Below, in pieces: positions 6,844 to 56,939 of a stretch of DNA of 64,000 nucleotides. The stretch comes from Clostridia bacterium. GTDB lineage: Bacteria; Bacillota; Clostridia; UMGS1883. The stretch lies in the NCBI GenBank assembly GCA_017411435.1, contig JAFQQD010000036.1, positions 2,938 to 66,937 of the forward strand, in the 5' to 3' direction. Below the pieces are notes generated by a model. The model searched no databases. It had not been told where the DNA came from and saw nothing but the letters and a program-made list of their open reading frames with translations. The translations under genes were made by a program, and so were the position numbers. The number at the start of each line of letters is the position of its first letter. Positions within the stretch are counted from its first letter, which is position 1.

Positions 6844-7623
6844 TTATTTTTCAATTTTGTCGCCTTTGATTTCTTCAAGCAAATCGCCTTCAGCTGTGTG
6901 AACATCTTCACCCTTCAAAAGGAAAATAGCGTTCGCACCTTTTACAGTGTAACCTGTGCTTTCAAATGCTGCTGCGATTTCAACATCGCCTGTGAGAACT
7001 GTGCCAAGGCCGAGACCTGCAACATCACCTATTGAGTACTTAGTATCGTTCTTTTCGGGATCGCTATCTGCTTTGCTGTTGTCACTAACATGGAAAGCCC
7101 ACCACATCTGTGTAAGGTCGCCTGCTGCAACATTTGTTGCGTTGAGCTTAAGGTAAACAAGAGAACCCTTCGTACCGGGATTAGCTGTACTAACATTTCC
7201 CGCTTTATCGGTTACTTCTGTAATGTCATCGACAACCTGCGCAGTTACCAATGTAAGCTTAGTTTCCTGAACAATCGGGATGTCGTTGCCAACCTTAACT
7301 GCATTTACACCTTCATTAGAAGCGTAACCAGCGTAAATATCGATAGCCGTCACAGAAGCATCTGTGATTTCAGCTTCAAATAATGCTGTGTCTGAAGTTG
7401 CAGCCTTCTGGTCAACAAAAAGGATTGTATCAGTTGTGAAATCATAATCATTATCATGACTTGTGATGATAATTGCAACCTGTTCGCCCTTCGCAACATC
7501 TTCAACAGTAACCTGGACTTTCTTTGCCGAATAGTCGGTAACTTCAGCGGCAGCAAAAGCTACTGTCGAAAGAACGAGGCACATTACTGTGACAAAAGCG
7601 ATTGCTTTCATAAACTTTCTCAT
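6844..7623 (-). CDS. Secreted protein of unknown function, paralog 1. It has a Sec signal peptide and is rich in Thr, Val, Ala and Asp.
   Basis: The N terminus MRKFMKAIAFVTVMCLVLSTVAFA/AAEV has an AxA cleavage site. The ribosome-binding site is GGGGAGG. A strong promoter lies upstream. It is a paralog of the 8142..8864 gene. Confidence 0.8.
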   Translation of the reverse strand: MRKFMKAIAFVTVMCLVLSTVAFAAAEVTDYSAKKVQVTVEDVAKGEQVAIIITSHDNDYDFTTDTILFVDQKAATSDTALFEAEITDASVTAIDIYAGYASNEGVNAVKVGNDIPIVQETKLTLVTAQVVDDITEVTDKAGNVSTANPGTKGSLVYLKLNATNVAAGDLTQMWWAFHVSDNSKADSDPEKNDTKYSIGDVAGLGLGTVLTGDVEIAAAFESTGYTVKGANAIFLLKGEDVHTAEGDLLEEIKGDKIEK

Positions 7624-8141: not shown

Positions 8142-8864
8142 TTATTCTTTAACAAGTTCAACTTCTTCGCCATTTACGCTAAGAAGAACCTTTGCGCCTG
8201 TTACTGTGTAGCCTGTGCTATCAAGAGCTGCTGCGATTTCAACATCTCCTGTAAGAACACTACCAAGAGCAGCAACGATGTTTGCGTCTGCTGCAGCATA
8301 CTTTGTAGCTGTTGCTTTTGTATCATCGTTCTCTACTTCGAATACCCAAGCCATACCTTCGATATCGCCTGCTGTAGCATTTGCAACACTAACCTTTAAG
8401 TAAACAACAGCGCCCTTTGTGTCGGGATCAACTGTGCTTGTTTCACCGTCAACTACAGCTTCTGTAATGTCGTTCTTAATCTGAACATCAGACAATGTGA
8501 TTGAGATTTCAACAGCTGCAGTAAGTTCAACATCGTTAGCAACCAAAACTGCACTTGAAAGAGCATTAGAAGCGAAACCAGCGTAAACATCAACTGTTTC
8601 TACATCTGCTGTAATAGCTGTGTTGAATACTGCTGTGCTAGTACCTGCTGCCTTCTGGTCCACGAAAAGGATGTTTTCTTTTGTGAAATTTGCGCCATCC
8701 CTTGTGATGATGATTGCAACCTGTTCACCCTTCTGAACACCTTCAACTGTAACAGCAACTGTCTTTGTTGCGTAGTCTGTAACTTCAACTGCTGCGAATG
8801 CTGCTGTTGAAAGAACTAAGCACATTACTGTTGCGAAAGCGATTGCTTTCATGAATTTTTTCAT
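8142..8864 (-). CDS. Secreted protein of unknown function, paralog 2.
   Basis: The signal peptide MKKFMKAIAFATVMCLVLSTAAFA/AVEV and the GGAGG site match paralog 1. It has the same architecture as 6844..7623 but the mature region has diverged. Confidence 0.8.
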   Translation of the reverse strand: MKKFMKAIAFATVMCLVLSTAAFAAVEVTDYATKTVAVTVEGVQKGEQVAIIITRDGANFTKENILFVDQKAAGTSTAVFNTAITADVETVDVYAGFASNALSSAVLVANDVELTAAVEISITLSDVQIKNDITEAVVDGETSTVDPDTKGAVVYLKVSVANATAGDIEGMAWVFEVENDDTKATATKYAAADANIVAALGSVLTGDVEIAAALDSTGYTVTGAKVLLSVNGEEVELVKE

Positions 8865-9973: not shown

Positions 9974-10123
9974 TCAAATTCGAATCATCGTGCAGCCCAA
10001 AACTATGATCAAGAACCCTTCTATTACCGCAAGGAGCCATGTGGGAAGAATCAATGCGGTAAAAATCCCTGCTATGTAGGCAAGGGTAAAAAGTCCGCAC
10101 GGACGGCAATATCTTTTTTTCAA
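9974..10123 (-). CDS. Candidate 49-aa membrane microprotein with a TTG start. It is not in the ORF track.
   Basis: Starting from TTG, the frame gives KKRYCRPCGLFTLAYIAGIFTALILPTWLLAVIEGFLIIVLGCTMIRI, which has two hydrophobic helices. GAGGGGG lies 9 nt upstream. The ORF sits between the polC terminator and a second terminator. Confidence 0.25.
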   Translation of the reverse strand: MKKRYCRPCGLFTLAYIAGIFTALILPTWLLAVIEGFLIIVLGCTMIRI

Positions 10124-10172: not shown

Positions 10173-13100
10173 TTACATCATTTCAAACATACTTACCTGT
10201 GCGCTTTGCGGAATTCCGTTAAAACAACCAAAGTTTTTCAAAAGTTCAATATGGGTTTCGCTGACACTCGTTCTCTGTTTGAAATCGTCAATTGAGAAGA
10301 ATTTTCCGTGTTCACGGGCATCGGCAATTGACTGTGCCGCACGGTCACCCATTCCGGCGATACTGTTAAGTGCCGGAAGTATCTTCCCATTTATATTAAG
10401 GTATTTTGTCGGATGTGACAGGTAGATATCAATCGGCATAAACTCAATGCCTCGCGCATACATTTCATTTACTACTTCCATAATGGTAAGAGTAGCCTTA
10501 TCACGCGCTGAAGGATTTTCAAGCGAGCGGAGTTCGTGCATTTTGCGAAGAAGATTTTCCCTGCCAGTTGCCATTGTTTCGTAGTCAAATGTATCCGCAC
10601 GGACCGTATAATACGACTGATAGAAAGCAATTGGATGATGCACCTTGAAATATGCAACGCGAAGTGACATTGTAACATATGCAGCCGCATGGGCACGCGG
10701 GAACATATACTGGATTTTATTACACGACTCAATATACCACTCCGGGACATTGTGCTCACGCATCTCTGCCTCATCCTCGGGCTTGAGTTTTTTACCCTTA
10801 CGAACCTGCTCCATGATTTTGAAAGCTCTTTCCGGGGGAAGTTCGCGGTTTATTAGATAAATCATAATATCATCACGGCAACAAATCGCATTTCGAAGGG
10901 TGCATATTCCTTTTTGTACAAGCAATTGTGCGTTATTCGTCCAAACATCCGTACCGTGAGAAAGCCCGGAAATACGGACAAGCTCACCCATTGAAGTAGG
11001 TTTCGTATCCACAAGCATCTGGCGGACAAACTTTGTTCCAAATTCGGGAACGGCAAATGTACCCGTTTCGCTTCCTATATCTTCGGGTGTTACCCCGAGG
11101 GCTTCCGTATTCAGGAAAAGGCTCATTACCGCCTTGTCATCAAGAGGAATCTCTGTAGGGTCTATCCCTGTAAGGTCCTGAAGCATACGAATCATAGTGG
11201 GGTCATCGTGGCCGAGAATATCAAGTTTTAACAGGTTTTCATCAATACTGTGGTAATCAAAGTGAGTTGTTATAATACCGCTCTCCGCCTTTTCAGCAGG
11301 ATGCTGAATGGGCGTAAATTCGTGAATGTCGTGTCCTTTGGGCAGAACAATAACACCGCCGGGATGCTGTCCTGTCGTGGTTTTTACATTCATTATGCCT
11401 TTTTTAAGGCGCTCTACCTCGGCATTATGTACATATTCGCCTTTCTGTTCGAAATATTTTCTTACATAGCCGTATGCGGTTTTTTCTGCTACGGTACTTA
11501 CCGTTCCAGCACGGAAAACATAGCCTTTGCCGAATATTTCTTCTGTATATTTATGAGCGCTCGACTGGTTTTCGCCAGAGAAGTTAAGGTCGATATCAGG
11601 CTGTTTGTCGCCCTTGAATCCAAGGAAGGTTTCAAAGGGGATATTGTGACCGTCTTTCACATACGGAGTACCGCAGACAGGGCAGTTTTTATCGGGCATA
11701 TCGAGCCCCGAGTCATAACTTTCATCATTTGAAAATTCGCTATGTTTACAGGATGGGCATCTGTAATGCGGTTGCAGAGAATTAACCTCTGTAATCTGTG
11801 CGCAGTATGCCAAAAATGACGAGCCGACACTACCTCTTGAGCCTACGACATAGCCTTCTTCACGCGAGTGCTTAACAAGGAGCCTGGCGATGTTATAAAG
11901 GTCGGCGTAGCCGTTACCAATAACACTTTTAAGTTCTCGCTGAAGTCTGTCTTCAACAATGTCAGGCAGCGGGTTGCCATAAAGCCCCTCGGCAGTTTCG
12001 CGGGCAATACGCTCAATATCTTCCGCGCTCCCCTCGATTTTTGGTGGGAAATTCCCCTTGGGAACAGGGCGTATATTTTCAATCATATCGGCGATTTTAT
12101 TGGTGTTTGTAACAACAATTTCATACGCCTTTTCTTCGGGAAGGTACGAAAATTCGTCAAGCATTTCACGGGTTGTCCTGAAGTACAAAGGTGCCTGCAT
12201 ATCGGCATCCTGATAGCCCTGACCTGCCTGAAGAATACGGCGGAAGACCTCGTCACGCTTACGCAGAAAATGCACATCTCCCGTTGCTACAACAAGTTTT
12301 CCGAGTTTATCTCCGATATCTATAATCTTACGGTTAAGCTGGCAAAGTCCCTCGCGGTCAGCCACAGTGCCGTTGCGCACAAGATAGTCGTTGTTTCCTA
12401 TCGGCTGCACTTCAAGATAGTCATAATATGAAGCAATGCGCTCCAGTTCTTCGTCACTTTCTCCGTTCAAAACGGCACGGAAAAGCTCGCCTGCTTCACA
12501 AGCAGAGCCCAGAATAAGCCCTTCCCTGTGAGCGTCAAGAACATCTCGTGGAATGAGCGGTCTTTTATAGAAATACTCCAGATTGGAGGCACTTACAAGT
12601 TTATAAAGGTTCTTAAGTCCCGTGAGATTTTGCGCAAATATAATTATATGATAGCGTTTTGTCTCACGCGTAAGCGGGGAATCCTTTTCGATAAGATATC
12701 CCTCGCAACCGTAAAGTATCTTTATAGTTTCATCGGCAGTGTGGAATGCTTCGGGAAATGCCTGTACACATCCGTGGTCTGTTATCGCTATTGCCTTGTG
12801 ACCGTATTTTATCGCCTGTTTCACAAGGTCCTTTGCGCTGACAACGGCATCCATTGCTGATGATTTTGTATGAGCGTGGAGCTCTACACGCTTTTCCTCG
12901 GCCTCGTCCTTTTCCTTCGGAAGCTCGTAGGGTATAATGTCACGCGCCATAACTGTAAGTTCGTGCGAGAAGTTATCCATCTCCGCCTTTCCGCGAAGAG
13001 CAACCACTCCTGTTTTTTTCAGCGCTTCCGTAACTTCCTCTGTTGCAGCGATGGGCACAAAGCATTTACAAGTAATTGAAGATGTATAGTCTGTTATGTA

Positions 13101-13799
13101 GAAAGAAACTATCGACTTCTTGATTTTTGTAATTTCTCTGGAATCTATTCCAAAAACCTCGCCGCAAATCATGCAGTTTCCTGTGTAATTGTCTATTTCC
13201 TTTATATTTATAAGGTCGTTTACGGGGAAAGGCTTGCCCATAAGAGCACCTTCCGATGCTACGGAAACAATTTTTTTAGGGGCAGGATTTTCCTTAGCTA
13301 TATAGACAGGTTCAAGCTTTTTTTCTACCGTCATTTCATCAACATCAAAAGCAACGGTTTTTTCGAGACCAAACCACTTCTTAAGATTTGCCGAAAGGTC
13401 TTTTCCAATACCCTCGCTTTCAGCAAGGTCAAGGTTTCCGTGACGCAAAAATACTGTAATCTTGTCCTTTTCACAACTTACAATACAGCTGTCGAGAATT
13501 GCACGCCAGAACGGATTCTGCAGCAAAAGAGAATCTATACAGTAATTAACGCAGTCGTTTTCATCTATTTTTTCCGCATCAAAAGAAAGATTCAGCGTAA
13601 AGTTGTGCAACTTATAGCTTTCCTTCACGCTCTTCACAAACTTTTCTACTTCACTATATTCAAATATTGTATCCGAGGTGGCGTCTGCGCTGATGGTTCG
13701 CTCGTTTGCGTCAGCTGAAATACCAAGTATTTTAGCATCAGACAAAGGAGCACTGCACTGCGCATTAGCGAAAGCCTCTCCCAAAGTGTAGTTTTGCAT
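10173..13799 (-). CDS. polC: DNA polymerase III PolC-type alpha subunit that lacks the intra-PHP 3'-5' exonuclease domain.
   Basis: The product is 1208 aa. The PHP start is HAHTKSS...ITDHG. PolC signatures present are GSRGSVGSSF, HPGGVIV, the zinc-finger-like motif CPSCKHSE...CPVCG, and the C-terminal FPRAHAAAYV. An OB-fold region lies near residues 190-290. Only about 17 aa separate the YGCEGY segment from HIIIFAQNLTGLKNL. Confidence 0.9.
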   Translation of the reverse strand: MQNYTLGEAFANAQCSAPLSDAKILGISADANERTISADATSDTIFEYSEVEKFVKSVKESYKLHNFTLNLSFDAEKIDENDCVNYCIDSLLLQNPFWRAILDSCIVSCEKDKITVFLRHGNLDLAESEGIGKDLSANLKKWFGLEKTVAFDVDEMTVEKKLEPVYIAKENPAPKKIVSVASEGALMGKPFPVNDLINIKEIDNYTGNCMICGEVFGIDSREITKIKKSIVSFYITDYTSSITCKCFVPIAATEEVTEALKKTGVVALRGKAEMDNFSHELTVMARDIIPYELPKEKDEAEEKRVELHAHTKSSAMDAVVSAKDLVKQAIKYGHKAIAITDHGCVQAFPEAFHTADETIKILYGCEGYLIEKDSPLTRETKRYHIIIFAQNLTGLKNLYKLVSASNLEYFYKRPLIPRDVLDAHREGLILGSACEAGELFRAVLNGESDEELERIASYYDYLEVQPIGNNDYLVRNGTVADREGLCQLNRKIIDIGDKLGKLVVATGDVHFLRKRDEVFRRILQAGQGYQDADMQAPLYFRTTREMLDEFSYLPEEKAYEIVVTNTNKIADMIENIRPVPKGNFPPKIEGSAEDIERIARETAEGLYGNPLPDIVEDRLQRELKSVIGNGYADLYNIARLLVKHSREEGYVVGSRGSVGSSFLAYCAQITEVNSLQPHYRCPSCKHSEFSNDESYDSGLDMPDKNCPVCGTPYVKDGHNIPFETFLGFKGDKQPDIDLNFSGENQSSAHKYTEEIFGKGYVFRAGTVSTVAEKTAYGYVRKYFEQKGEYVHNAEVERLKKGIMNVKTTTGQHPGGVIVLPKGHDIHEFTPIQHPAEKAESGIITTHFDYHSIDENLLKLDILGHDDPTMIRMLQDLTGIDPTEIPLDDKAVMSLFLNTEALGVTPEDIGSETGTFAVPEFGTKFVRQMLVDTKPTSMGELVRISGLSHGTDVWTNNAQLLVQKGICTLRNAICCRDDIMIYLINRELPPERAFKIMEQVRKGKKLKPEDEAEMREHNVPEWYIESCNKIQYMFPRAHAAAYVTMSLRVAYFKVHHPIAFYQSYYTVRADTFDYETMATGRENLLRKMHELRSLENPSARDKATLTIMEVVNEMYARGIEFMPIDIYLSHPTKYLNINGKILPALNSIAGMGDRAAQSIADAREHGKFFSIDDFKQRTSVSETHIELLKNFGCFNGIPQSAQVSMFEMM

Positions 13800-14845
13800 T
13801 ATAATTCCTCTATTTCCTTCAAAAGCTCATTTACAGCTCTTTCAATGGGGATTTTGCGTATTGTTTCACCGTTTTTGAATAAAAGTGCCTCTCCTTTTCC
13901 GCAGGCTATGCCAATGTCAGCCTCACGCGCTTCACCCGGGCCGTTTACGGCACAGCCCATAACGGCAACTTTAATGTCTTTTTCTACTGCTGATATTTTT
14001 TCGCTTATTTCATTGGCAATGGGAATCATATCAACCTGACATCTGCCACAGGTAGGACAACTTACAAACTGAACTCCTCTGCGCAAATTAAGTGCACGGA
14101 GAATTTCAATACCTGCAACAACTTCCCGAGCAGGCTGAGCAGTAAGCGAAACGCGAAGGGTATCGCCTATTCCGTCAAGCAGAAGACTTCCGATGCCAAT
14201 GCTGTTTTTTACAACACCGCCATATTCTGTCCCTGCCTCAGTCACTCCTATATGAAGGGGATAATCTATCATATCGGCGATTTTTCTGTACGCGCTGACG
14301 GTTGATTCTACGCTGCTGCTTTTTATAGAAAGAGCAATATCGTAAAATTTACAGTCCTCGAGAAGCTTTATATGCGAAAGTGCACTTTCACACAGGGCAT
14401 CGGGCGTAGGCGCACCGTATTTTTTAAGGAGCTCTTTTTCAAGCGAGCCTCCGTTTACGCCAATTCGTATAGGGATATTACGAGAGCCGCACTCGTCTGC
14501 AACCGCCTTTGCGCGGTCGGAAGAGCCAATGTTTCCGGGGTTAATGCGGATTTTGTCCACACCTCCGCGAGCACACTCAAGTGCAAGTCTGTAATCAAAA
14601 TGAATGTCAGCTACGAGGGGGATTTCTACCTGTTTTTTAATCTCGGCTACTGCCTTTGCCGCAGTCATATCGGGAACTGCAAGTCGTACTATATCACAGC
14701 CGGCAAGTGTAAGTTCCTTTATCTGAGAAACTGTTGATTTGATGTCGCGGGTGTCAGTATTGCACATGGATTGCACGCTTATGGGTGCCCCTCCGCCTAC
14801 TAAAACATTGCCTATCTTTATTTGTCTTGAAGTGCGTCTTTTCAT
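13799..14845 (-). CDS. ispG: 4-hydroxy-3-methylbut-2-enyl diphosphate synthase (IspG/GcpE).
   Basis: The protein starts MKRRTSRQIKIGNVLVGGGAPISVQSMCNTDTRD. A C-terminal 4Fe-4S cysteine cluster reads CPTCGRC. Confidence 0.95.
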   Translation of the reverse strand: MKRRTSRQIKIGNVLVGGGAPISVQSMCNTDTRDIKSTVSQIKELTLAGCDIVRLAVPDMTAAKAVAEIKKQVEIPLVADIHFDYRLALECARGGVDKIRINPGNIGSSDRAKAVADECGSRNIPIRIGVNGGSLEKELLKKYGAPTPDALCESALSHIKLLEDCKFYDIALSIKSSSVESTVSAYRKIADMIDYPLHIGVTEAGTEYGGVVKNSIGIGSLLLDGIGDTLRVSLTAQPAREVVAGIEILRALNLRRGVQFVSCPTCGRCQVDMIPIANEISEKISAVEKDIKVAVMGCAVNGPGEAREADIGIACGKGEALLFKNGETIRKIPIERAVNELLKEIEEL

Positions 14846-14920
14846 AAAATCACCTTTTCAAATAAGTATAATTATTTTATCACAAAAACATGAACAGGTA
14901 AAGAGCAAATTTATTCAAAC

Positions 14921-15056: not shown

Positions 15057-17858
15057 TTATTTTACGATATAAATAGCCTTTGCAGTGTTACTTACAGAAT
15101 CTGTCGAAATTACAATAATTTCGCTTGAGTTGCCAGCAGATATACTTATGTTATCGTACTTATAGTCTGTTTCTTCAAGGACAATATTTCCTTCTTCGTC
15201 AACTCTGTAAACATTTGTGCTGGAAGAAAGTTTGTATGTGAAGAGTTTTCCTTCTTCCTGCTTAGCAGCATCGTCATAAGATGAGCCCATTGCCTTAGTT
15301 ACACTCATTTGTGTAGTACCTATGATATCGAATGCTTCTGCATATCTGATTTTGAGTTCCCCAACATTTGATGTAACTGTGCTGAAGTACATATAGTCAT
15401 TATTGGGACCTGGTGAATAGAGCATGGAGTCAGCACTTGCATCGTAAACCATTTCGATAACAATTACACCTGTTGCATCTGTGATATAGCGGATGATATC
15501 GCCTTCTGATACATCTGCAAATTCTACAAGCGCATCGTCATCTGCAAATGATTTGAACTTATCCTCTGAAATAGTTACTGTATTTTTATTTGAAGTACCA
15601 TTTGCAAAACCTGTAATTTTCAAATTCGCTCTGTCAATATCTGTTACTACCATATAGGGAGATGTTGCAACAAAATCATATGCGGGGTCAACACCATAGA
15701 TAAGAACCATTGTAGGCTGTTTTGTTCTCTGTTCAGGATCTGCACCGAAGATTTTAACTTCACGGTCGCCTCCTCCTGCAAATGCCTTGGAAGGAGCCAT
15801 GATTGAGTATTCAGCGTCAGAAGTTCTGTTTTCAGGAACAAATATAACCATTGTGGATGATGAAACCTGATAAGCTGTTCCGCCTAACTTAACGCTGCTT
15901 CTGGTTGTAGCTGCTTCACCGCCGTCATTATAGATGAATGTATCATCACTATTTGAGCCGATTGCAGTTGCTTTTACATAGTTTCCGTCAGCATCTTTTT
16001 CTGCCTGTGCAGCGGTATCGATTGCTGCAAGCTCGCCGTCGTTAGTAATAATATATTTTACAGGCTGTGAGCATACTGCTTCTCCGTAAAGAGCCTGAGC
16101 AATTTCTTCAAGTTTTGCCTTTACATCATCATTATCAGTAGATACACCGTCAACTTTTACTTTACTCTTCATGGGAACAAATTCAAAAGTCTTGTCCTTC
16201 TTCATAAGGTTAACTGTATCTTTGTCTGCGTCAACGATATAACCAAGGTCATATTCGCTTGATGTTACGGGGTTGTAGTCAACTGCCGCAATCTGACCTG
16301 TGAAGTCAAGATAGTACTTGTAAGTGTCATTAAGCGCGAAAGGAGCCTTTCCGTTTCCTGAGAAGTCAGCATATTCATTAGTAAGGTAGTATTCTTTACT
16401 GTTGAGAATAACTTTTCTTACACTGTCAATAACTTCATTTACCTTGCCGTTGTATGACTTAGTTGTAACATACATCTTGCTTATGGGGTTACCGCCCACA
16501 CCTTCGGGAGATTCCATAAGATTAATAATATTGTAAGCACGAAGAGAAAGCGAGTCAAATTCTTTCTTTACGCCGTCAACATAAATGATGGGTTTCGCAT
16601 CTGTTGATGAGGGGAATGTGTAATAGCCGCCATCATACTTGAATGTAATCTTTCCTGAAGTTCTGTTGTAGCTGTCTACAGCATGAACTTCATAGCTTGT
16701 GACTTTAGCAAACTTCCTGCCTGATGTTTCAACAAGCTCAATCTTACCGTTTGTAAAGTTTGTATTGAAGTTTTCAATAATATCGCTGTTTGAAGGAATA
16801 TATTTTCCGTTATAGATAACAGTATAGTCTGAAAGAGAAAATGTTGAAATTTTCTTGTTTTCGTTATAGTACTTAACTATACCGTCCTCTACAGGACGAA
16901 TCAAAGAAGCCTCATCAATCAAAGTAATTTTGTTATTTGCCTTTGAAATGGATGTAAGCTGACGGTCAAGAGTATTGTAATACGCAGTTACGCCCTTACC
17001 GATAAGGTCTTCAAAATCAATGCTCTTTGCAAGTTCGGAAGAAAGCTCATAAGTTTCTTCGCCGTTTTCCACTGTTGTTATTTTGATTTCGTTAAGGCTG
17101 ATACCCGCATTTGTTGATTGAATGCCTGTATAGTAAGTACCTGAAACGATACCCTTTACTTCAACAACAGTCTTTTCTTCGTTTTCGCTTGAATCTCCCT
17201 TTTCAACTGTTCCGTCCTCATTCTGCTTAAGCGGAGGAACATCTAAAGCATTGCTTGTAAGAACTGCAACAACGCCTCTTGATGCAGGCTCGGAAATCTT
17301 AGCTGTAATTACACTCTTTGTAATACCGTGCTTGTTAGCTGCTGCGATGTAACCTGCAGACCATGTTGCACTGGGATTTGCAACAATAAGCTTGTTATAT
17401 TCGCTCTGTGCAACTATTTCATATCCAACTGCACAAACGAGCATTTTTACTGCCTGCTCATATGTAACAGGCTCACCTGCACGGAAAGTGCCGTCTTCAA
17501 AGCCGTTGATGATACCAAGATCAACTGCTGCTTTTACATAGGGGCGTGCCCATGCACGAGATTCATCGCTGTCAAGGTCAGAAAAGCCTGTTACTGCATC
17601 TGCGCCAAGCTCTCCTGCAACGCCCTTCATACGGGTTACAATAGCGGCAAATTCCGCTCTTGTGATCTGATTGTCCGGTCTGAAAGTACCGTCTTCATAG
17701 CCTGTGATGATGCCATTGGCAACAAGCTTGTTAACAGCCGTGTTAACCTTTTCATCTTCAATATCACTGAAATCCGCCGCAAATGTACTGATTGACATTG
17801 TTGATACAATCATTACAAAAGCAAGAATCAAAGTGACAATTCTTTTTGTTTTTTTCAT
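15057..17858 (-). CDS. Large surface protein with three N-terminal SLH domains.
   Basis: The signal peptide is MKKTKRIVTLILAFVMIVSTMSISTFA. SLH repeats include FSDIEDEKVNTAVNKLVANGIITGYEDGTFRPDNQITRAEFAAIV. The ribosome-binding site is GGAGAGG. The start was trimmed to aa 20 of the ORF-track call. Confidence 0.85.
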   Translation of the reverse strand: MKKTKRIVTLILAFVMIVSTMSISTFAADFSDIEDEKVNTAVNKLVANGIITGYEDGTFRPDNQITRAEFAAIVTRMKGVAGELGADAVTGFSDLDSDESRAWARPYVKAAVDLGIINGFEDGTFRAGEPVTYEQAVKMLVCAVGYEIVAQSEYNKLIVANPSATWSAGYIAAANKHGITKSVITAKISEPASRGVVAVLTSNALDVPPLKQNEDGTVEKGDSSENEEKTVVEVKGIVSGTYYTGIQSTNAGISLNEIKITTVENGEETYELSSELAKSIDFEDLIGKGVTAYYNTLDRQLTSISKANNKITLIDEASLIRPVEDGIVKYYNENKKISTFSLSDYTVIYNGKYIPSNSDIIENFNTNFTNGKIELVETSGRKFAKVTSYEVHAVDSYNRTSGKITFKYDGGYYTFPSSTDAKPIIYVDGVKKEFDSLSLRAYNIINLMESPEGVGGNPISKMYVTTKSYNGKVNEVIDSVRKVILNSKEYYLTNEYADFSGNGKAPFALNDTYKYYLDFTGQIAAVDYNPVTSSEYDLGYIVDADKDTVNLMKKDKTFEFVPMKSKVKVDGVSTDNDDVKAKLEEIAQALYGEAVCSQPVKYIITNDGELAAIDTAAQAEKDADGNYVKATAIGSNSDDTFIYNDGGEAATTRSSVKLGGTAYQVSSSTMVIFVPENRTSDAEYSIMAPSKAFAGGGDREVKIFGADPEQRTKQPTMVLIYGVDPAYDFVATSPYMVVTDIDRANLKITGFANGTSNKNTVTISEDKFKSFADDDALVEFADVSEGDIIRYITDATGVIVIEMVYDASADSMLYSPGPNNDYMYFSTVTSNVGELKIRYAEAFDIIGTTQMSVTKAMGSSYDDAAKQEEGKLFTYKLSSSTNVYRVDEEGNIVLEETDYKYDNISISAGNSSEIIVISTDSVSNTAKAIYIVK

Positions 17859-22078: not shown

Positions 22079-22112
22079 CTGTCCGTGGGGATTTTCCTCA
22101 CGGACAGTTTTT
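22079..22112 (+). terminator. Rho-independent terminator. It is convergent with, and overlaps, the rdgB stop codon.
   Basis: Stem ctgtccgtg, loop, stem cacggacag, then ttttt. Confidence 0.6.
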
Positions 22113-22698
22113 AACTGTACTGCTTTTTTTCAAGTTTTTCGGCAAATATCCCAAGTGCTTTTCCGCGGTGGCTGATTTCGTTTTTCTCTTCAGGCGTGAT
22201 TTCTGCCATGGTTTTCCCAAATTTTTCCACAAAGAATACGGGGTCGTATCCAAACCCGTTTGTACCCTTGGGAGCATAGTCGATTTTGCCTTCACACTCG
22301 CCGCGGGCAGTAATGATTCCTTCTCCTGATACAAGTGTAATTGCACAGACAAATCGTGCACTTCTTTTTTCATCGGGGACATTTTCCATATTTTTAAGAA
22401 GAAGTGTGACGCGTCCTTTATCGTCATAACCCTCACCACCGTAGCGTGCAGAATATACGCCAGGTTCTCCGCCAAGGGCATCTACACATAGTCCGCTGTC
22501 GTCAGCGATTGCAGCAATTCCCGTAAGGTCATAAATTGCTTTTGCCTTAAGATAAGAGTTTTCTTCAAATGTTGTGCCTGTCTCCTCAACATCTAAATCT
22601 ATTCCTGCTTCCTCCTGGCTGATGATTTCAAAGCCTTTGAGGATTTCTCCGAATTCACGAAGTTTATTTTTGTTTTTTGTTGCGGCTATTATTTTCAC
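22111..22698 (-). CDS. rdgB: Non-canonical purine NTP pyrophosphatase (RdgB/Ham1).
   Basis: The protein starts MKIIAATKNKNKLREF and continues ...FGYDPVF. Confidence 0.9.
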   Translation of the reverse strand: MKIIAATKNKNKLREFGEILKGFEIISQEEAGIDLDVEETGTTFEENSYLKAKAIYDLTGIAAIADDSGLCVDALGGEPGVYSARYGGEGYDDKGRVTLLLKNMENVPDEKRSARFVCAITLVSGEGIITARGECEGKIDYAPKGTNGFGYDPVFFVEKFGKTMAEITPEEKNEISHRGKALGIFAEKLEKKQYS

Positions 22699-55934: not shown

Positions 55935-56939
55935 ATGATTAACGGTAAAAAGGTTATTTTCTCAGGAATTCAGCCATCCAGCGATTCAATTACACTTGGT
56001 AATTATCTCGGAGCGCTCAAGAACTGGGTTTCTCTTCAGGACGAATACAGCTGTATTTTCAGTGTCGTTGATATGCACGCAATAACTGTAAGACAGGAAG
56101 CCGCACAACTTCGTAAGAACACGCTTTCGCTACTTGCCCAGTACATTGCATGCGGACTTGATGCAGAAAAAAATATTATGTTTATTCAAAGTCATGTTCC
56201 TGCACACGCAGAGCTTGGCTGGATACTTAACTGCTTTACGCAGATGGGCGAGCTTAACCGCATGACACAGTTTAAGGATAAATCACAAAAGCACCCCGAA
56301 AACATCAATGCAGGTCTTTACACATATCCTGTTCTGATGGCAGCGGATATTCTTCTTTATCAGACGGACCTTGTTCCCGTAGGTGCTGATCAGAAGCAGC
56401 ATCTGGAGCTTGCGCGCGATATCGCTCACCGTTTCAACACTCTTTACAGCGATACATTCGTAATTCCTGATGCGTATATCCCTGCAAAGAATGCAGGTGC
56501 AAAGATTATGAGTCTTCAGACACCCACTGCGAAAATGTCGAAGAGCGACCCCAATCCCAACGGTTGCATATTCCTTCTTGATAAGCCTGAGGATATTATG
56601 CGCAAGTTAAAACGCGCAGTGACGGACTCTGAGGCGGAAGTTTGCTACCGCGAGGGTAAGGATGGTGTCAACAATCTGCTTACCATCTACTCTACCGTTA
56701 CAGGCAAGAGTATTGACGAGGCAGTTTCTGAATTTGCCGGAAAAGGATACGGCGATTTCAAAACCGCTGTCGGCGAGGCTATTGTTGAGCATCTTCGTCC
56801 GATTCAGGAAAAATATGATGAGCTTATGAAAAACAAGGACTATCTTGAAAGTGTATATAAAAACGGCGCTGAAGCAGCAAACTGTGTTGCACGCCGTACA
56901 ATAACGAAAGCAAAAAAGAAAGTCGGTTTTATTATCTAA
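55935..56939 (+). CDS. trpS: Tryptophan--tRNA ligase.
   Basis: The motifs GIQPS and KMSKS are present. Confidence 0.95.
   Translation: MINGKKVIFSGIQPSSDSITLGNYLGALKNWVSLQDEYSCIFSVVDMHAITVRQEAAQLRKNTLSLLAQYIACGLDAEKNIMFIQSHVPAHAELGWILNCFTQMGELNRMTQFKDKSQKHPENINAGLYTYPVLMAADILLYQTDLVPVGADQKQHLELARDIAHRFNTLYSDTFVIPDAYIPAKNAGAKIMSLQTPTAKMSKSDPNPNGCIFLLDKPEDIMRKLKRAVTDSEAEVCYREGKDGVNNLLTIYSTVTGKSIDEAVSEFAGKGYGDFKTAVGEAIVEHLRPIQEKYDELMKNKDYLESVYKNGAEAANCVARRTITKAKKKVGFII

Follow-up and report, generated by a model that had tools for sequence, protein, structure and literature searches.

The polC locus and its product

The DNA analysed here, hereafter the window, is a 64-kb stretch of contig JAFQQD010000036.1 from an uncultured Clostridia bacterium, and the gene under study is its polC, an open reading frame (ORF) on the minus strand that starts with ATG and runs through 1208 codons without interruption. 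The encoded protein is identical to MBQ3022791.1 ('MAG: Clostridia bacterium') and is a PolC-type DNA polymerase III alpha, scoring 1515.7 bits with NF001688 and 1407.4 bits with TIGR01405, both NCBIfam equivalog models of PolC (cut-offs 873 and 1043.45, respectively), and staying far under the cut-offs of all DnaE models. Its domain order is also that of PolC, with the OB fold lying N-terminal of PHP, unlike in DnaE, a tandem helix-hairpin-helix module, (HhH)2, at the C-terminal end and no DnaE-type C-terminal OB fold or C-terminal domain. The hallmark insertion of a DnaQ-like 3'-5' exonuclease (Exo) into the PHP domain is absent. The features of the gene are:

10173..13799, minus strand: polC ORF, Exo-less PolC-type DNA polymerase III alpha, 1208 aa (Pfam and NCBIfam)
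13230..13799, minus strand: N-terminal domain of PolC, divergent, spanning residues 1-190 (Pfam DNA_pol3_a_NII matches weakly at 85-160, E=0.056)
12933..13169, minus strand: OB fold, residues 211-289 (Pfam PF01336, E=5.6e-6; a beta-barrel in the structural model)
12030..12899, minus strand: PHP domain, residues about 301-590 (Pfam PHP at 306-459 and alignment of the metal ligands)
12651..12701, minus strand: 17-residue PHP loop GYLIEKDSPLTRETKRY, with the junction between L376 and T377 (alignment with relatives that carry Exo)
10773..12017, minus strand: Pol3 core (palm, thumb, fingers), residues 595-1009 (Pfam PF07733 and PF17657)
10209..10451, minus strand: tandem helix-hairpin-helix DNA-binding module, residues 1117-1197 (Pfam PF14579, HHH_6, E=8.9e-14)
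10185..10199, minus strand: C-terminal QVSMF, candidate beta-clamp-binding motif (Qxxx[LF] type)

The motifs from which a sequence-only reading of this DNA had recognised a PolC could each be located in the ORF protein:

residues 308-311: HAHT
residues 341-343: DHG
residues 653-662: GSRGSVGSSF
residues 681-684 and 706-710: CPSC and CPVC(G), zinc-finger-like
residues 812-818: HPGGVIV
residues 1033-1042: FPRAHAAAYV

Within the polymerase core, Pfam placed DNA_pol3_alpha at residues 595-863 and the finger domain at 866-1009. Three aspartates of this region, D735 and D737 (PDIDLNF) and D860 (LKLDILG), were invariant in 32 aligned sequences, as were the four cysteines of the zinc module (C681, C684, C706 and C709) and both Q1201 and F1205 of QVSMF. 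From what is established for the family, we take the three aspartates to be the putative catalytic triad of the polymerase and QVSMF to be its candidate clamp-binding motif.

Absence of the exonuclease insertion

The same reading had proposed that no DnaQ-like domain interrupts the PHP domain and that its GxE and HxTLLAQN segments lie some 17 residues apart, and both proposals were borne out. Pfam gave no match to RNase_T (PF00929, the DnaQ-like exonuclease) in the ORF protein even at E<=1, and exactly 17 residues (GYLIEKDSPLTRETKRY) separate the ligands E366 and H384. In the MAFFT alignment a clean gap falls between L376 and T377, at the place where relatives that retain the domain (Exo+) hold 194-200 residues with DEDDh motifs. 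The NF001688 match is split in two, its second stretch starting at query residue 379, which corresponds to profile position 611 of 1445, and the Exo region of the profile appears to be skipped. The junction was modelled as a strand-loop-strand with block values of the predicted local distance difference test (pLDDT) of 94/87/94.

An exonuclease displaced to another place was also considered. The Pfam scan found no Exo I-III motifs elsewhere in the ORF, and a hidden Markov model (HMM) of the Exo insert gave no match against the six-frame translation of the whole window (best E=0.26, 6 bits), so that Exo motifs in another part of the ORF or of the window are ruled out. These results support a PolC that is without the DnaQ-like insertion and is otherwise intact.

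A natural and conserved gene

Because the window comes from a metagenome assembly, the short linker might be an assembly or binning artefact, and the gene itself might be a pseudogene in decay or a second, redundant copy, since another polC elsewhere in the genome is formally possible. Recurrence of the architecture argues strongly against an assembly deletion. The exact protein was met on 5 contigs, and after clustering at 90% identity of sequences drawn from NCBI, ENA, JGI and Logan assemblies, which come from different projects, the same architecture was found in >100 clusters (58-100% identity, ~1204-1225 aa, without PF00929). It is shared by 34 species-representative genomes, including that of the cultured Desulfosporosinus fructosivorans, and the Exo-less variant has been published independently from complete genomes (PMC3919608).

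Selection on the gene points the same way. In a codon comparison with two relatives at 90-92% identity, the ratio of nonsynonymous to synonymous substitution rates (dN/dS) was 0.04-0.05 for the whole of polC and 0.03-0.04 within PHP, and came to about 0.03-0.05 across the junction wherever an estimate was possible; the N-terminal domain (residues 1-190) is the fastest-evolving part of the protein, at 0.07-0.13. Synonymous sites are near saturation and these ratios are therefore approximate, but the proportion of nonsynonymous differences (pN) is still far under that of synonymous ones (pS), and purifying selection on polC is strong. The AlphaFold2 model, which covers residues 190-1208, had a mean pLDDT of 85.3 and superposed on Geobacillus PolC (3F2B) with template modelling (TM) scores of 0.90/0.92.

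The position of the gene is conserved as well. Directly upstream of polC lies:

13799..14845, minus strand: ispG (GcpE) (ORF and domain annotation)

This arrangement recurs in the relatives L084 and L085 and, among the species-representative loci, ispG is directly upstream of polC in 19 of the 30 Exo-less and 24 of the 37 Exo+ cases. Since the synteny is common to both classes, the Exo-less gene occupies the orthologous slot and is no accessory copy; a horizontally acquired second copy is likewise disfavoured by this shared slot and by neighbours that are chromosomal housekeeping genes. Taken with the uninterrupted frame and a dN/dS of about 0.04, these observations leave the artefact, pseudogene or second copy as a very remote prospect that is effectively already refuted, and the sequence-only proposal of a natural exonuclease-less PolC is upheld by recurrence, purifying selection, conserved position and a confident model.

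Probable recurrent loss of Exo among PolCs

To place this variant among its relatives we used a scan of GTDB species-representative genomes, which yielded 80 PolC loci, 75 of which entered the tree. Exo was absent from 34 of the 75 (PHP loop of 13-43 aa, no match to the Exo HMM) and present in 41 (PHP loop of 211-217 aa); this Exo-less fraction of 45% is too high, since the ranking of loci went by their similarity to a query that itself lacks Exo. In an exhaustive search of 50%-identity representatives, ~21 of the 150 best matches were uninterrupted Exo-less PolCs. A truncated Faecalibacterium locus (L023), which was left out of the tree, is Exo-less too. The labels of the Exo-less taxa span Desulfosporosinus fructosivorans, Selenomonadaceae, Syntrophomonadaceae, Limnochordia, Acutalibacteraceae, Lachnospiraceae, Peptostreptococcaceae and Oscillospiraceae.

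In a neighbour-joining (NJ) tree built on 873 shared columns, the window PolC clusters with clostridial PolCs, its nearest GTDB loci being labelled Oscillospiraceae (82-84% identity), and the Exo-less sequences are spread over several clades that are intermixed with Exo+ ones. Fitch parsimony over 100 NJ bootstraps required 6-10 changes of Exo state (median 8). We read these changes as independent losses, because it is implausible that the same domain was gained at the same site, and the clade-specific loop lengths (13-43 aa) agree with this. Exo-less forms thus stand in at least 6 separate clades of the 75 PolCs, implying recurrent loss. A single ancestral loss accounts for the close relatives of the window protein, among which the loss is one event, but it is rejected on the broader GTDB sample.

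Two further observations were made on these sequences. A sister sub-clade of Exo-less PolCs (P0074-P0097, for instance P0076 and P0085; 1292-1339 aa) has an OB fold duplicated in tandem, a later acquisition, with the extra copy between the first OB fold and the PHP domain at alignment columns of about 545-650; Timinskas et al. report tandem OB domains only for two Lactococcus PolCs (PMC3919608). In addition, two clostridial-type Exo-less PolC loci (L006 and L068) were found in bins labelled Ignavibacteriales and Bacteroidaceae, and these most likely reflect bin contamination or mislabelling, not PolCs of those phyla.

The PHP metal site

The PHP domain of the window PolC holds the full set of nine metal ligands (H308, H310, D317, H342, E366, H384, C434, D508 and H510), which align to those of Taq. 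The pattern HHDHEHCDH was invariant in alignments of 11 and 32 sequences and was kept by every one of the 76 GTDB loci whose PHP region is complete, whether Exo-less or Exo+. A recent survey defines an 'active' PHP site by the motif HHDHEH[C/H]DH (PMC12926913), and the nine-residue trinuclear site found here is complete by that definition. The eighth ligand separates it from two canonical PolCs: D508 is Asp here (GDVH), whereas Geobacillus and Enterococcus faecium PolC have Asn (GNVH). By the same motif, the PHP site would be 'active' in the window PolC and not in those two enzymes.

Published work bears on what such residues do. For Geobacillus kaustophilus (Gka) PolC, Banos-Mateos et al. tied the absence of PHP exonuclease activity to the mutation of one of the nine residues, which is left unnamed, and in Mycobacterium tuberculosis (Mtb) DnaE1 the mutation of D23 or D226 inactivates the PHP exonuclease (PMC5636811). 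Compared with the 2HPI sequence, the Taq 3E0D chain has Asn at both Asp positions equivalent to D23 and D226. In Clostridium thermocellum, the polC mutation C669Y behaves as a roughly 30-fold mutator (bioRxiv 10.1101/2021.07.30.454558), and C669 is the Cys ligand equivalent to C434. In Mtb DnaE1, the loop corresponding to the insertion point of Exo lines the groove for the PHP substrate (PMC5636811); the loop following the Glu ligand measures 17 aa here, 18 in Taq and 29 in Mtb.

Relation to known polymerases

The Exo-less architecture is already known, having first been published in 2013, and is common among Clostridia; its finding here is a re-discovery, and the database entry of the protein already bears a PolC annotation. 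Timinskas, Balvociute, Timinskas and Venclovas (NAR 2014, PMC3919608) reported that 6% of PolCs are without the Exo insertion, exclusively in Clostridia and Negativicutes and paired with DnaE1, and that among PolC+DnaE1 systems the figure rises to 16%; they accepted these sequences as PolC on phylogenetic grounds. The 2026 survey cited above (PMC12926913) is from the same laboratory. The window protein shares the PolC affiliation, the missing insertion and the clostridial source of that group, and likewise consists of an N-terminal domain (NTD), OB fold, uninterrupted PHP domain with a conserved metal site, Pol3 core and (HhH)2. Nothing essential differs, and it is a further member of the group from an uncultured ruminant-gut lineage. 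New beyond this literature are the recurrent loss, the full metal site throughout the 76 loci, the variable loop length, the shared ispG-polC synteny and the lack of a neighbouring split-off Exo gene. For the last of these, a 43-sequence Exo HMM was run against six frames of 37 Exo-less loci (534 kb altogether) and, out to about 6 kb from polC, gave no match at E<0.01; Exo as a separate gene next to polC is thereby ruled out for these lineages.

Compared with canonical PolC (Bacillus subtilis, Geobacillus kaustophilus, Staphylococcus aureus and Enterococcus faecium, PDB 9QPC), the window enzyme has the same domain order, zinc module and polymerase core, with about 50% identity to Geobacillus PolC outside the Exo region, but is without the DnaQ-like domain of ~195-211 aa, which in E. 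faecium PolC sits between the third and fourth PHP strands (PMC12592400). It also has engineered counterparts. The exonuclease domain of Geobacillus PolC was taken out for crystallization of 3F2B (PMC12592400), and residues 209-1205 of the window protein align end to end with chain positions 20-1030 of this Gka-PolC-deltaN-deltaExo construct (3F2B/3F2C/3F2D). The corresponding deltaN-deltaExo construct of S. aureus PolC is a fast polymerase (kpol, the polymerisation rate constant, of 330 per s; PMC3656037), and excision of Exo is therefore compatible with catalysis. Both constructs are laboratory deletions with an incomplete PHP site and no NTD, whereas the excision in the window PolC is natural, conserved and selected, the NTD is kept and the PHP site is complete.

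As functional analogues we propose the PHP-proofreading DnaE1 polymerases. M. tuberculosis DnaE1 (5LEW) and Thermus Pol III alpha (2HPI) carry the same nine PHP ligands in the same order and a short loop after the Glu ligand. They are only ~20% identical to the window PolC and their OB fold is C-terminal, and exonuclease activity has been demonstrated for them, whereas for the window PolC it is predicted from the likeness.

The surroundings of polC

The window is ordinary chromosomal DNA, with ffh-rpsP, rpsB-tsf, glyA, polC, ispG, an SLH protein gene, lgt, two M16 peptidase genes, a Ham1-type NTPase gene, an ABC-F protein gene, trpS and an atp operon. The ispG stop and the polC start overlap by 1 nt (TAATG) and a GAGGA Shine-Dalgarno sequence precedes, which makes co-transcription and translational coupling of the two genes probable. 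Two flanking elements were recognised by consensus match only:

14874..14902, minus strand: promoter-like site upstream of ispG
10067..10085, minus strand: terminator-like hairpin ~90 nt downstream of the polC stop

Downstream of polC lie two tandem paralogues on the minus strand (6844-7623 and 8142-8864; 259 and 240 aa, 52% identity) with signal-peptide-like N-termini and no Pfam family, each followed just downstream by a 59-aa ORF (15676-15855 and 16974-17153 in the coordinates of L001). The paralogue pair also follows polC in L084 and L085. About 8 kb upstream of polC, a Ham1p_like gene (22111-22698, minus strand) encodes a non-canonical NTP pyrophosphatase of the RdgB/ITPase type, an ordinary housekeeping function, yet one relevant to replication fidelity given a DnaQ-less PolC. 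Farther away, a cell-envelope polysaccharide cluster of ~30 kb (window positions about 25000-55300, minus strand) comprises two tandem Wzy_C, two tandem Acyl_transf_3, three ATP-grasp genes and one PGA_cap gene, several glycosyltransferases and sugar-nucleotide enzymes; a dip in G+C near 34-38 kb (to 0.35-0.37) is a hint that a segment there is variable or was acquired. The Rfam scan at gathering thresholds gave no RNA family in the whole window, and in particular no T-box leader before trpS (55935-56939, plus strand).

How an Exo-less PolC would be proofread

We consider it reasonably probable, taken as a whole, that this gene is an orthologous chromosomal polC from which Exo was excised and whose PHP domain most probably proofreads in cis. 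The gene would be the polC of an uncultured ruminant-gut Clostridia bacterium whose closest named relatives are labelled Oscillospiraceae, and a DnaQ-like 3'-5' exonuclease of ~195 aa would have been excised from its insertion point in the PHP loop, leaving the 17-residue loop. With the remaining enzyme intact (OB fold, PHP domain, zinc module, Pol3 core including the Asp triad, (HhH)2 and C-terminal clamp motif), the window PolC should be an active, clamp-tethered replicative polymerase. Editing would most probably be carried out by the PHP domain through its nine-ligand trinuclear metal centre, the same kind of centre that edits 3'-5' in M. tuberculosis DnaE1 and Thermus Pol III alpha. Clostridia usually possess three apparently active proofreaders, namely PHP in PolC, PHP in DnaE1 and DnaQ in PolC (PMC12926913), and because clostridial PolCs normally hold an apparently active PHP site besides DnaQ, the latter may have become redundant and been repeatedly lost.

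Of the two routes put forward in the sequence-only reading, a DnaQ/epsilon supplied in trans and PHP-based editing, the intact and invariant nine-residue metal site favours the latter. We infer that this site acts as the exonuclease and main proofreader, because the ligand set is complete, because C669Y is a mutator and because the Exo site is a PHP-groove loop of Taq-like length. Several points weigh against this. We found no report of a biochemically demonstrated PHP exonuclease activity in any PolC, and the metal site could be conserved for structural reasons or for another activity; a structural role was argued for the E. coli PHP domain by Barros et al. (2013), as cited in PMC12926913. 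Exo+ clostridial PolCs keep the same ligands, so that conservation does not separate the two classes. The C. thermocellum mutator could stem from destabilisation instead of lost catalysis, and a trans-acting DnaQ or a dominant role of DnaE1, encoded elsewhere in the genome, is possible.

The first of these two arrangements, which has also been raised before (PMC3919608), would have a standalone DnaQ/epsilon-like exonuclease bind PolC, or mismatched ends passed to DnaE1. Proofreading in trans does exist in Firmicutes, where the Exo domain of B. subtilis PolC works in trans for DnaE3; proteomes hold on average >3 standalone DnaQ homologues (2026 survey, PMC12926913), and the PHP site of DnaE1 is intact in Clostridia. 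However, no dnaQ/DEDD exonuclease and no dnaE gene is present in the 64-kb window, nor does one lie within about 6 kb of polC in the 37 Exo-less loci, although this linkage evidence carries little weight because such genes need not adjoin polC. As the PHP site of the window PolC is complete, a trans factor is not required, and we regard proofreading in trans as unlikely.

Alternatively, DnaE1 could replicate the bulk of the chromosome, the Exo-less PolC being a specialised or auxiliary enzyme that needs no high-fidelity editing. Timinskas et al. raised this explicitly, noting that DnaE1 stands alone in some Clostridia and that Exo-less PolCs are without exception clostridial (PMC3919608). An auxiliary enzyme sits poorly with the very strong purifying selection over the full length of the gene, with the retention of clamp motif, catalytic residues and PHP ligands, and with a housekeeping position beside ispG that is common to Exo+ PolCs. 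Moreover, C669Y in polC alone raises the genome-wide mutation rate of C. thermocellum about 30-fold, which implies that, in one clostridial species at least, a large part of the DNA is made by PolC. We therefore hold an auxiliary role to be rather improbable and retain editing in cis by the PHP domain as the preferred explanation.

Implications for clostridial replication

The finding of an Exo-less PolC by itself changes little, as it is a published architectural variant. The recurrent-loss pattern, in turn, suggests that PolCs with an intact PHP site can do without the DnaQ domain. Extending this, we tentatively propose, as something close to an even possibility but short of it, that the working proofreader of PolC in a large part of the Clostridia is the PHP domain and not the DnaQ-type domain, DnaQ having been discarded as redundant at least 6 times independently. 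The division of labour in the clostridial PolC+DnaE1 replisome is an acknowledged open question (PMC3919608), and PHP editing in PolC would be most cleanly tested on naturally Exo-less PolCs whose PHP site is complete. The matter is relevant to PolC-targeted antibiotics against Clostridia-class organisms and to mutation rates in the abundant gut Oscillospiraceae, Acutalibacteraceae and Lachnospiraceae. If the proposal is true, Exo-less PolCs would be natural single-proofreader enzymes, offering the first chance to demonstrate PHP editing by a PolC, and would mark a step back towards PHP proofreading as the ancestral state of C-family polymerases.

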